A model generated the notes under the pieces. It had not been told where the DNA came from and did no database searches. It saw only the letters and a program-made list of their open reading frames with translations. Both the position numbers and the translations under genes were made by a program. A DNA stretch of 64,000 nucleotides from Candidatus Latescibacterota bacterium (lineage in GTDB: Bacteria > Latescibacterota > UBA2968 > UBA8231): assembly GCA_965197905.1 (NCBI GenBank), contig CBDAOB010000004.1, forward strand, positions 1,184,001 through 1,248,000, read 5' to 3'. Of this stretch, positions 51,587-56,035 are shown in pieces (the stretch's first letter is position 1; every line of letters starts with the position of its first letter).

Positions 51587-51928
51587 TCATTCTCGAGGAT
51601 TCTCCTCTGAGGGGGTTGGGTCGATCGCGTCTCCCGCCCAGCAGAAAGCGGCCACGGTAGAAGGCAGACCCAGGGTTCCGGCAGCGAGAGCCACGACCTG
51701 TTCAACCTCCTCAGCGCTTATGCCCAGTCCCAACGCCTTGCGCACGCTGGAGTGTACCGCCCCTTCGCGCATGGCGCCGATGGCAATACCCAGCTTCACC
51801 AGGCGGCACGTGCGATCGTCGAGAGGACCGTCGTGGCCGGCGGCGGCAATGGAGTTCCACGCTTCCCCGAGTTTTGGATAGCGGGCGACGAATTCGTTAT
51901 ACGCTTTGGGCGGTTTGGGTGCAGTCAT
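51587..51928 (-). CDS. Carboxymuconolactone decarboxylase (CMD/AhpD-like) family protein
   Basis: GPLDDRTCRLVKLGIAIG..EGAVHS..RKA..G.S.EE, G.P motifs; no CxxC. Confidence 0.85.
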   Translation of the reverse strand: MTAPKPPKAYNEFVARYPKLGEAWNSIAAAGHDGPLDDRTCRLVKLGIAIGAMREGAVHSSVRKALGLGISAEEVEQVVALAAGTLGLPSTVAAFCWAGDAIDPTPSEENPRE

Positions 51929-52024: not shown

Positions 52025-54895
52025 TCACTTCTCGATCAAGCTGTGGATGCTGGCCACCGTGGCAGGCGACCATCCGGAGTGAACTTCGGCAATCCGGCCG
52101 TTCCGATCGATTATGTACGACACCGGAATGAATATTTCGTCGCCGGAGAACAGGTATGCGAAAATGCTCCGGTCGGTAGTGAAGATGGGATAGGTAATCT
52201 TCATTCGTTTTAGGAAACCGGGAATCCGCTCTCGTTGTTCGTCCATGTCGAGGCTGACTCCGAGCAGTTCGACGCCGGAGTCCCCAAGCAACGGTGCCAG
52301 CTTTTGCAGCTGGGGCATCTCCTCGCGGCATGGGGCGCAGTAGGTCGCCCAGAGATTGACCAGATATCTGCGATCTGCGCGCCGAAAACTGTGGAAATCG
52401 GTGTCGCTTCCCGTTGCGTCGACCAGGGGAATATTGGGGAAAATCTCGCCCGGCCCGAACCTCAGTGCCCGTAGAATCGGATCTTCCGCCGCCATGGGAT
52501 CGGGGAGCGTAAACCGGTGCTCTTCCCGGGCAAGGTAGCCCGCTTCGCCTTCCACCAGCAGGATGGAAGATTGCGCCGCGATATTGGTCAGGCGTCGTCG
52601 TTTGCCAGAGGGCCACTTTACCTCGATCCACTCCGCCTCCACGTCCGCGCCCAACCCGAACAGCAGGCGCGGATCGCTCTGTGAAACGAAACCACTACCC
52701 CCTGCTTTGATCTTGGTGAGCACCCCCTGCGAAGTCTTGACCCGCACCTCGGTACCGTAGGCATCGCGCCCGCTCTCCCTCCCGTCCAGGGAGACACGTA
52801 GAAACGCTGCATCCTGACCCACGTTGTTTCTGAAGAGGTGGTGTATCTGCCCCTGCAACGTGGTGAGGAAGATGTCGTAATCCCCGTCATTGTCGAAGTC
52901 GGCATAAGCGGCGCCCCGTCCATCCGTAACCGAATCCAGACCGGAAAGTCCGGAGATATCCACAAAACGCTTTCCCGAATCGTTGAGATAGAGCTTGTCG
53001 CGTTCGAATCCGCTGAACGAAAACCCCTCCTGAAAGATCTTGCCCATATGATCGTTCTGGTAGAGGTCGTTGCCTGCGGCCTCCATGCCTACCGTAGACG
53101 CCAGCACGTGGCGCCAAAAGAGGCTTCAGGTGTCCCTTAGGGATTTGCCGGAGATAAATCCGTTGGGGGCATGGAGATCCTCCCAACCGTCGTTGTCCAC
53201 GTCGATGAAACCACCCCCGAAAGCCCAGCCGGCACCCAATCCCCCGACCTCCTGGCTCACGTCGGCGAACCGCCCCCCTCCAAGGTTCCTGAAGAGGGTG
53301 TTGCCGGCGGCCAGCTTGAAAAGCACCCGGGTATCGGTCAACTGATCTGGCTGCTGGGGAAACAACCTCTTGAGGATCCGTCGACCGGCCGTGGAGGACA
53401 TGTTGGTGACGTGCAGATCGAGGCGACCGTCGTTGTCAAAATCTCCCATGGAAACGCCCATCCCATTTCCCGGATCGAGCAACTTGCGTTCAGAAGCGGC
53501 ATCGAGGAATCGGTTTCCCTGGTTGAGGAACAATCCGTTTTCACCGAAATCATTGGCGACGTAGAGATCCATTCGACCGTCATCGTTCAGGTCGCCGAAT
53601 TGAGCGGCGTAACTCCAGCGCCCGTCGGCGACGCCCCAGGCAGCGCCGCGTTCTTGAAATCTGCCGTCGCCCTGATTCACAAATAGTAGGTTGGGGGTAC
53701 CGTTCGTCGCGCGCGCCCAGGAATCGGGCATGATGACGCCGTAACGATTGTAGGAGGCGACATAGATATCCGGCAGACCATCGTTGTTGACGTCGCTGGA
53801 GACCGCGCTGAACCCCTGGGCGGCATGGTCGACTCCCGCTTCCACAGAGATGTCGATGAACTCCAGGTTGCCGTCCGGGACCAACCGATTCTCGAACAGC
53901 ATCTGAAAACCGGTGGCGGCCAGGAACAGATCGCTGTCTCCATCGTTGTCGAAGTCGAGAAAAAGCGGCGCCGTTGCCGTGGGTGTAATCTCCACGGCGG
54001 TTTCAGCGGCCACTTCCCGGAAGATGCCGTCCCCGCTGTTGATGTAAAGAAAATTGCGCCCGACGCCGGTAGTGAAAACGTCCAACAACCCGTCCCGGTC
54101 CACGTCGACGACGGCAACCCCGTGGGCGACGAACTCTTGGTTGCCGGGCTGGCCGAAACGGGGGACCGAATGGTACACGCCGGCGGAAGAGCTGACCTCA
54201 CTGAAGAGATCGACGCTCGCCGAGCTCAGATGCAGCTCCTTTATCTCGAATAGATCGATACGCCAAACCCCGTTGTCATCGACGGTGGCCTCGATCTTGG
54301 CTTTGGCCTGCAACCAGACCCTGAGTCCTTCCTCGCTGCGACCGACCACGAAGAAGAATATCCGTGCAAAGGCGCGCTCGTTTTCTCCACCCGCATCCGC
54401 CTCAAAATGGGCCTGTTTGACCTTGAACCGAACATCCTCGATGGAGCTGAAGCGGTCTAGAAAGCTCGACCACTCCTGCACAAACGCCGCCTTGTCCAAT
54501 CCTGTCCGGAGCGGAAGCGCGGGCTCGTCGCGGATCCATTTGATCGCGCCGACGGGGGCTGCGGTTTCGGGTATGCTCGTGGCGCGAAGATTCTCGGAAA
54601 AATGCGTGGCCAAGCTGTCCACCTCGCGTGAGAGTAGGAATGTGGACAGACGATGCAGCTGGTTGGCCAGGGATTCGGAAAGATCCTCGATCCGCTCCAT
54701 CCGCGGGCGATCGACCGTCGTCGCCGCGTCCGAGCGATCAACCCCCACGCAGGCGAGGGTCAGCACGGTCAAAAAAAACGCCGCGATCACTAGTTTTCCA
54801 AGAGCTTTCGGGCTACCGGCTTGAAATCGGCCCGTTGGGCGGTGTTCGACGGCAGGGTACGGGAAGGGTTGGGAATTCGTGCCATGGTTGGTCAA
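52025..54895 (-). CDS. Putative selenocysteine-containing lipoprotein: FG-GAP/VCBS repeats + ASPIC/UnbV + TlpA-like thioredoxin (in-frame UGA at 53128-53126)
   Basis: Two ORFs in the same frame joined by DT-UGA-SLFWRHV; DxDxDG repeats on both sides; SGFVSQS..LFGLG..V.WPSG; WATYCAPC; LTLAC lipobox. Confidence 0.7.
53078..53125 (-). promoter_or_regulatory. Candidate bacterial SECIS element
   Basis: After UGA: AGCCUCUUUU-GGCGCCA-CGUGC-UGGCGUC (7-bp stem; loop begins 18 nt after UGA, GU at loop positions 2-3); lower pairing GCCU(C)/(G)AGGC is possible. Confidence 0.6.
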
Positions 54896-54955: not shown

Positions 54956-56035
54956 CTACCTGTCACTCGGCAGACACGGATTCGCGTTCTGCGTCAGGAA
55001 AACCAGCAGGAGGGCCCCAACAAAAATTGCGATTGCAGTTCCCTGGTGGAGAGAGGCTATCGCGGGAGGAACGTGATGAACCACCACGGCAATGCCGAGA
55101 GCCGCTTGCACCGCCATGAGCAGCAGAACGACAGCGCTGGAGAGGCGCAGGATTTGGGCCGGCTCCGGGCCGCGAAGTCGCATCCACAGAACCACCGCCA
55201 GAACCAACGGCACCAAGGCGAACCAGCGATGCTGGAAATGCAGGGTAACGGGATTCTCGAACAGGTTCAGCCAACCCGGCGTCGATGTTCCCAGGCCAGA
55301 TGGAATCCATTGTCCGAACATCTTCGGATAGGTTGCCGAGATGAAGCCGGCCTTCAGACCCGCAACCAGGCCACCGGCGGCGATCTGAACGCTGACCGCG
55401 ATCCACAGTCCGAAAGCAACCCCTCGCGCGGCCGAGCCGGCGATGTCGATTCGTCGTGGCAGCGAGTTTTCGAACGCCAACCACAATACCGCCGCAAGGA
55501 GCGCCAGCGCGCATCCCAGGTGCACTACGAGGCGGTAATGACTCACCTGCGGCCGGTCTTCCAGTCCGCTCTTGACCATCAACCAGCCAACCAAACCCTG
55601 GACGGCAAACAACAGTCCGATGCCGAGATAAGCCCATATTCGGCCCCTGGGTATCGCCCTCCGAAGGAGCAGAAGTACCAACGGCGCCACGTATGCCAGT
55701 CCGGTGACGCGGCCAAGCAGCCGGTGAGTGAACTCCCGGTAGTAGATCTCCTTGAACGCCGGCAGAGAAATTCCCCGGTTAACTTTTTTGTATTCGGGAG
55801 TTTTTCGGTATTTGGTGAACTCCTCCTGCCATTCCGCGTCACCTAGCGGCGGCAACACACCCGTTACCACGTTCCACTCTACGATCGACAATCCCGATCG
55901 CGTCAACCGAACCCAGCCACCGTAGACAATCAGGAGGATGATCAGCAGGCTCACCGCATAAAGCCAAAGTGCTATCCGTGGAATAACTGCAGCGGGCGGT
56001 GGGATTGCGACCCGGGTTTGATCTACAGCCGGCAT
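54956..56035 (-). CDS. ctaA: Heme A synthase (COX15/CtaA, type 2)
   Basis: GG.VRLTRSGLSIVEW, EFTHRLLGR, GWLMVKSGL, SHYRL..H, HFQHR, HQ motifs. Confidence 0.92.
   Translation of the reverse strand: MPAVDQTRVAIPPPAAVIPRIALWLYAVSLLIILLIVYGGWVRLTRSGLSIVEWNVVTGVLPPLGDAEWQEEFTKYRKTPEYKKVNRGISLPAFKEIYYREFTHRLLGRVTGLAYVAPLVLLLLRRAIPRGRIWAYLGIGLLFAVQGLVGWLMVKSGLEDRPQVSHYRLVVHLGCALALLAAVLWLAFENSLPRRIDIAGSAARGVAFGLWIAVSVQIAAGGLVAGLKAGFISATYPKMFGQWIPSGLGTSTPGWLNLFENPVTLHFQHRWFALVPLVLAVVLWMRLRGPEPAQILRLSSAVVLLLMAVQAALGIAVVVHHVPPAIASLHQGTAIAIFVGALLLVFLTQNANPCLPSDR

Follow-up and report, generated by a model that had tools for sequence, protein, structure and literature searches.

Results

Organization of the locus

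The window, by which we mean the complete stretch of 64,000 nucleotides analysed here, carries on its reverse strand a reading frame that is interrupted by a single internal stop codon (Table 1). Translation of this region yields 589 residues, one TGA, a further 366 residues and a terminal TGA. The internal codon, located in the context NGFISGKSLRDT*SLFWRHV, is in frame with both flanking open reading frames, and this bears out the proposal of the initial annotation that the 589-residue frame and the downstream frame are separated only by this TGA. The length of 956 residues proposed at the same time is right in so far as the frame is open from TTG 54895, but GTG 54790 is the more likely start, resulting in a protein of 921 residues with the putative selenocysteine at position 555. 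We prefer this start because the window shares it with the two orthologs nearest to it, and because the alignment upstream of it is poor. Residue numbers nevertheless follow the 956-residue form throughout. The nearest named relative of the gene, with 94% identity, is recorded as Candidatus Latescibacterota. A search of the genome for a second copy of the site returned only one chance-looking match. As had been suggested, coverage of the TGA was inspected in contigs assembled from public runs. Contigs X1 (2034 nt, 5 differences) and X4 (2741 nt, 26 differences) both span the site, and no change at the TGA is among the differences listed; the two represent one sample, which is perhaps the source of the window. 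No RNA run was among the public runs listed as containing the sequence, a result without bearing on expression.

Table 1. Coordinates of the gene, its predicted domains and the hairpin in the window
Feature	Position	Strand	Remarks
Whole gene, read through the in-frame UGA	52025..54895	-	956 aa from TTG 54895; 921 aa from probable start GTG 54790
In-frame TGA, predicted selenocysteine codon (residue 590)	53126..53128	-	Motif D-x-U-[ST]-x-F-W-R; start of predicted helix
Predicted signal peptide or membrane anchor (residues 36-57)	54725..54790	-	Hydrophobic N-terminal segment; lipobox not conserved
NTF2/SnoaL-like N-terminal domain (residues 58-227)	54215..54724	-	AlphaFold pLDDT 95.3; 3ef8 Z 14.7
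FG-GAP (DxDxDG) beta-propeller, CRTAC1-like (about residues 228-695)	52811..54214	-	Pfam FG-GAP_3; model; 9etn match
ASPIC/UnbV domain (residues 712-777)	52565..52762	-	PF07593 E 3.6e-17
TlpA/ResA-like thioredoxin domain (residues 816-950)	52046..52450	-	Pfam Redoxin and AhpC-TSA over cut-off; TlpA and ResA structures
Bacterial SECIS-type hairpin (candidate)	53097..53115	-	Stem +11..+17 / +23..+29, loop CGUGC, G+19, U+20

Architecture and predicted export of the protein

All 29 close orthologs share the hydrophobic N-terminal segment, and export by a signal peptide is predicted. The initial annotation had described the protein as a lipoprotein, a view that the data do not uphold. The canonical lipobox pattern is [LVI][ASTVIG][GAS]C, which the T-L-A-C of the window does not fit; the 94%-identical ortholog has Trp in place of that Cys, and only one of the 29 close orthologs displays the pattern.

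When residues 58-956 were modelled by AlphaFold with Cys in place of selenocysteine, a single well-formed fold was obtained (pLDDT 95.2, pTM 0.92). The best structural match of the N-terminal domain, 3ef8, superimposes with an rmsd of 2.4 over 135 residues and NTF2-like folds dominate the list of matches; Pfam SnoaL_4 scored over its cut-off in the homolog P0044, while this domain of the window's copy had no Pfam match. The propeller together with the ASPIC part matches murine CRTAC1 (9etn) with Z 43.6 and an rmsd of 2.3 over 450 residues. Within the propeller, Pfam detects FG-GAP repeats on both sides of the TGA, as had been noted earlier, and the model contains two helical inserts, of which the second holds the selenocysteine site: residue 590 opens a helix inserted in a late propeller blade. 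The ASPIC/UnbV and TlpA domains named in the initial annotation are confirmed by their Pfam matches, which come after the propeller. The motif WATYCAPC of the latter domain provides the pair C853/C856 (C853-A-P-C856 encoded at 52339-52328). With the NCBIfam models for ResA, TlpA and the WAxxUGC selenoprotein family, this TlpA-like domain remains far from reaching the cut-offs, and in an NCBIfam search of the whole protein no family scored over its cut-off.

Long homologs carry additional TPR repeats. Dozens of other FG-GAP repeat genes are present in the window's own genome, G000, all of them without the motif of the selenocysteine site. The gene is flanked by a CMD/AhpD-like gene (51587-51928, reverse strand) and by ctaA, encoding heme A synthase (54956-56035, reverse strand). 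Together with a sigma factor gene and pntA, these genes recur beside it in the two closest relatives only, and the neighbourhood therefore offers no clue to an operon.

Conservation of the TGA codon

After placement on a profile and deduplication, 109 distinct homologs keep TGA at the column of the site and 20 have a sense codon. Excluded from the counts of residues, hairpins and CxxC motifs were matches below 120 bits (distant Bacteroidota-type paralogs and the frameshifted copy of G013), rows gapped at the column and duplicates; rows with N were excluded from the residue and hairpin counts, though not from the CxxC counts. The TGA homologs stem from Latescibacterota, Acidobacteriota and Planctomycetota and reach down to ∼32% identity. 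A motif D-x-U-[ST]-x-F-W-R surrounds the site, in which the D of position -2 and the W of position +4 are each found in 108 of the 109 TGA genes.

The same picture emerged from the genome samples. One TGA was located inside 20 of the 21 matches in 61 relatives. The window's phylum, sampled with 140 genomes, gave 53 matches, 45 of which contained a TGA. In 301 genomes of the phylum of G097, which is Planctomycetota by the title of its locus L081, 138 of the 150 listed matches, out of 185 in all, did so, one listed match having three TGAs; as 10 candidates per genome were scored in this sample its counts are lower bounds, and the TGA was assigned to the exact column for fetched loci only. No TAA or TAG inside a match was reported from any of these three samples, even though these two codons close about half of the long open frames in the window's genome. 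The TGA being kept in all three samples and in 109 distinct homologs, neither a recent nonsense mutation nor an error of assembly can account for it. Broken copies do occur elsewhere in the family, namely in G013 and G128, but we regard this explanation as the least probable of all those considered here. The G013 copy (L033) has a frameshift near the site, and the G128 copy (L133/L194) looks broken through additional TGAs at two places, 21 and 25 codons past the site.

Forms that read through the site carry S, R, E, C, A, D, M and other residues at the column. Cys occupies it in 4 of the 20 non-TGA loci and in 3 of the 29 database hits whose alignment covers the site, the Cys forms being P0002, P0009, P0014, L156, L157, L161 and L193, and E, D or N is present in 8 of the 20 non-TGA loci. 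Catalogued selenoproteins mostly have Cys orthologs, and the minority-Cys pattern of the propeller family counts against the selenocysteine reading. The alignment across the junction that had been proposed as a check has shown a TGA conserved at its column with Cys in some homologs.

The replacements speak against a changed genetic code in which TGA would be read as Trp or Gly. Although the nearest hits to the four candidates listed in PMC4807772 Table S9 have Gly as their aligned residue, Trp was found in no read-through homolog and Gly in one poorly aligned distant hit only. Moreover, TGA is the commonest stop of long open frames in the window's genome, terminating 1141 of 2255 while about half use TAA or TAG, and tRNA-Sec is the only tRNA with a TCA anticodon. 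We consider a changed code highly improbable.

Alternatively, the translation of two genes might be coupled, or a programmed stop might give rise to a short and a long form without selenocysteine. The upstream half is indeed present in databases as a protein, as 90 of the best 120 database proteins stop exactly at the TGA site. Selenocysteine insertion is often partial, so that a truncated product may exist. However, TAA and TAG were never seen at this stop, and no conserved Met follows the TGA in the 109 TGA genes, 36 of which lack any Met in the next 60 codons. The cut would also fall inside a propeller blade and leave the second half of the protein without a signal peptide. Coupled genes or a programmed stop are very unlikely for these reasons, and for two more that come from the hairpin and from the selenocysteine genes.

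A SECIS-like hairpin follows the TGA

Directly downstream of the TGA, a 7-bp stem (GGCGCCA/UGGCGUC) encloses the loop CGUGC, with a folding energy of -9.7 kcal/mol. The stem and GU-containing loop described in the initial annotation are thus present, but it is the loop and not the stem that begins 18 nt downstream. A published rule for bacterial SECIS elements asks for a loop of 3-9 nt, a stem of 4-16 bp, G in loop position 1-2, a spacing of 16-37 nt and an energy of at most -7.5 kcal/mol (PMC13188914 Fig 2), and the window's hairpin agrees with it in loop, stem length, spacing and energy. In our own simple implementation of this rule, which is not bSECISearch, it was satisfied by 95 of the 109 TGA genes versus 2 of the 20 non-TGA homologs, and by 921 of 33,831 TGA sites tested genome-wide. 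An Rfam search of 52900-53300 gave no match at E up to 10. Folded alone, the hairpin was no better than shuffled sequences (z -0.39 to -1.06), and its significance accordingly derives from the comparison of homologs rather than from single-sequence folding.

All six core pairs were found in 71 of the 109 TGA genes as compared to 1 of the 20 non-TGA genes, these and the above rule counts being numbers of sequences and not of independent events. In synonymous-codon shuffles, the six pairs were retained in 1.9% (maximum 7.3%). The pair +15:+25 connects the silent position of an Arg codon with the opening base of a codon further on, and occurs as C-G in 34, T-A in 18, A-T in 16 and G-T in 10 cases; in the ortholog L025, both bases have changed, from C-G to T-A. 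Covariation thus goes beyond the constraint imposed by the protein, as judged from the synonymous-codon shuffles, slid controls and the four pair types at +15:+25. In the loop, G+19 is kept in 106 and T+20 in 107 of the 109 TGA genes. The remaining 38 TGA genes have no full stem in the window's register, some of them apparently having it in a shifted one. The covariation check suggested earlier has thereby yielded compensatory pairs and a core stem that is tied to the TGA, and we conclude from these alignments that the hairpin is selected as RNA. That a SECIS-like hairpin is lost along with the TGA is the first additional argument against a stop without selenocysteine.

Some genomes hold 8-10 copies of the gene, with tandem arrays in G312 and G354. 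The TGA paralogs in these arrays (4 copies at G354:C204 and 5 copies at G312:C253) appear to have a shifted hairpin register and a shorter loop.

Selenocysteine genes and their co-occurrence with the family

A search of the window's genome (6.7 Mb, 91% complete), which the initial annotation had recommended, identified selA, selB, selC and selD, with a TCA anticodon in tRNA-Sec. The selD gene itself has an in-frame TGA, followed by a hairpin with its stem at +11..+17 and the loop GGUC at +18, so that G+19 and U+20 are found at offsets equal to those in the window. The 39 genomes behind named TGA loci all hold selB (35), selA (3) or tRNA-Sec (1). In the 301-genome sample, selB was detected in 77 of 82 family-positive versus 146 of 219 family-negative genomes, for which Fisher's test gives p 3e-7, a value that is overstated because related genomes are not independent. 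Two of the five family-positive genomes without selB have selA. In G215 and G338, where selA, selB and tRNA-Sec were not found, the family is represented by TGC copies only (3 copies), and such Cys copies in genomes where selenocysteine genes were not found are the second additional argument against coupled genes or a programmed stop. The fifth, G281, has a TGA copy (L198), yet selA, selB and tRNA-Sec were not found in this genome, which may be incomplete. As many non-TGA copies sit in selB-positive genomes, loss of the codon cannot result solely from loss of the machinery.

Elsewhere in G000, outside the window, three further in-frame TGAs were observed in UxxC contexts, namely W*GYC (C4:453304, reverse strand), G*DFC (C3:436095, forward strand) and A*HFC (C5:758974, reverse strand). 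They are followed by SECIS-like loops at +17/+18, and judging from these contexts the three genes look like peroxiredoxin- or thioredoxin-like selenoproteins.

Together, the conserved TGA, the presence of Cys in some homologs, the covarying hairpin and the complete set of selA, selB, selC and selD argue for the selenocysteine reading put forward in the initial annotation. We are highly confident, from these sequence comparisons, that selenocysteine would be inserted at residue 590.

The selenocysteine site and the CxxC motif

A CxxC motif is present in 94 of the 107 assessable TGA genes versus 1 of the 18 non-TGA genes, leaving 13 TGA genes without it. Among the forms with Cys at the site, 6 of 7 have no CxxC, and P0005 combines Val at the site with an intact CxxC. 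Six forms with D, E or A at the site (L182-L186, L188) retain the thioredoxin-like domain minus its CxxC; these paralogs are possible non-redox binders. In a FastTree tree, unrooted and with long-branch warnings, non-TGA forms appear at dispersed positions between TGA clades, with 11 changes. A tree-corrected sign test on selenocysteine and CxxC provided 8 independent pairs, of which 5.4 agreed and none disagreed (median p 0.0625). The co-occurrence of the two sites suggests an internal redox relay, a link that is not significant after tree correction. Recycling of the selenocysteine by the protein's own CxxC, as initially proposed, thus has the co-occurrence in its favour but not the corrected test.

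The main alternative is that selenocysteine is inserted as a ligand of a metal or cofactor, or as a structural residue, while the thioredoxin domain serves other proteins. This would be compatible with the E, D and N residues at the site of non-TGA loci, with the TGA genes that have no CxxC, and with the TPR repeats of the long forms, which suit protein clients. On the other hand, the E, D and A forms are precisely those in which the thioredoxin domain has lost its cysteines, and a Cys no more than 15 residues away from the site is commoner in TGA genes without CxxC (5 of 13) than in those with it (8 of 94). We regard the ligand or structural role as a tentative alternative, less probable than a redox role but one to be taken seriously.

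Six TGA forms (L037, L038, L198, L043; L147, L153) were observed to have a Cys either two residues past the site, as U-x-C, or else at positions +5 and +13. A thioredoxin domain is missing from five of these forms, and L043 ends at a contig edge.

Discussion

A predicted selenium-dependent oxidoreductase

Our analyses very probably describe one gene instead of two, in which UGA is read as selenocysteine and which encodes a predicted exported, selenium-dependent oxidoreductase of ∼920 residues that would be recycled by its own thioredoxin-like domain. In the mechanism that we envisage, SelB bound to the downstream hairpin would direct the decoding of UGA as selenocysteine, and the signal peptide would lead to export of the ∼920-residue protein. 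The helix of Sec590 would sit in a late blade, past its second strand and ahead of its third, and by general propeller topology this place would be the ligand-binding face. Sec590 may then attack a bound substrate or oxidant at the propeller face, upon which C853/C856 would return the oxidised selenium to its reduced state, and a DsbD-type protein could in turn recharge this pair from the membrane. A DsbD_TM gene is present in the window's genome. A complex prediction for the thioredoxin domain and the rest of the natural Cys homolog P0002 gave a score of 0.00, which we count neither for nor against the relay. Taken jointly, attack from the ligand-binding face, reduction by C853/C856 and recharging by a DsbD-type protein are somewhat more probable than not. 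Candidate substrate-binding sites are offered by the NTF2-like pocket as well as by the propeller face.

Whether the protein represents one of the larger overlooked bacterial selenoprotein families, that is an exported Sec/CxxC propeller enzyme able to recycle itself, being the ancestral form of a subfamily that spans several phyla and expanded to 8-10 paralogs or tandem arrays in some genomes of the planctomycete phylum, we judge to be evenly balanced. If selenocysteine is indeed inserted, a widespread protein is wrongly represented in public annotation as two separate genes, as in the 90 database proteins mentioned above, and a beta-propeller family present in 43 of 140 genomes of the window's phylum and in at least 82 of 301 genomes of the phylum of G097 would be added to the bacterial selenoproteome. 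An active-site hypothesis would then be available for the CRTAC1/ASPIC-UnbV scaffold, for which no enzymatic role is described in the literature searched. Should the reading as a self-recycling enzyme be true, this scaffold would carry a catalytic redox site, and paralogs that lost both selenocysteine and CxxC would have become non-redox binders.

Previous records of the family

ASPIC/UnbV proteins are not known as a characterised selenoprotein family, as the initial annotation noted. We found no description of such a family, but four split gene pairs labelled 'ASPIC UnbV; FG-Gap' were tabulated as selenoprotein candidates in 2016, three of them with a predicted bSECIS (PMC4807772 Table S9). 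Compared by the table entry alone, as no sequences are given there, these candidates probably belong to the window's family. ASPIC and FG-GAP terms are absent from the main text and supplementary files 13 and 14 of that paper, the accessible parts of which differ from our analysis in holding a table entry only, with no family conservation, covariation or CxxC link described. Table 1 of PMC13188914 (2026), which covers 119 families, has no FG-GAP, ASPIC, CRTAC1 or propeller entry, and term searches were blank for PMC12013277 (main text and 4 supplements) and for the main texts of PMC9312934 and bioRxiv 2022.07.06.499078. No NCBIfam or Pfam selenoprotein model scored over its cut-off for the window protein, and no main-text description of a propeller selenoprotein family was found in the searchable non-subscription literature. 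The family has thus probably been tabulated once, in 2016, without being described as a family in the searchable literature. In another context, a CRTAC1-family gene is located beside hydrazine-synthase homologs, according to the accessible part of PMC12758564.

Comparison with known systems

In its decoding, the gene resembles bacterial SelB/bSECIS genes, of which the E. coli formate dehydrogenases are the archetype, by virtue of the in-frame UGA, the hairpin inside the open reading frame with its small G-U loop, and the presence of selA, selB, selC and selD. In contrast to those genes, the predicted selenocysteine is located in an insert of a beta-propeller and not in a UxxC or CxxU thioredoxin site, and the CxxC lies 263 residues further downstream in a separate domain. 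Like CRTAC1 and other ASPIC-UnbV proteins (murine CRTAC1, PDB 9etn), the protein consists of an FG-GAP propeller followed by an UnbV_ASPIC domain; unlike CRTAC1, it is extended by an NTF2-like domain at the N-terminus and by a TlpA domain, and the selenocysteine-bearing stretch did not align with the CRTAC1 sequence. With the TlpA, ResA and CcmG reductases it shares a WAxxCxxC thioredoxin fold, reductase activity being only predicted for the window protein, whereas its domain differs from these reductases in being fused at the C-terminus and in having two ordinary Cys residues. The decoding of this gene is therefore of the standard SelB/SECIS type, while the propeller scaffold is new for selenoproteins.
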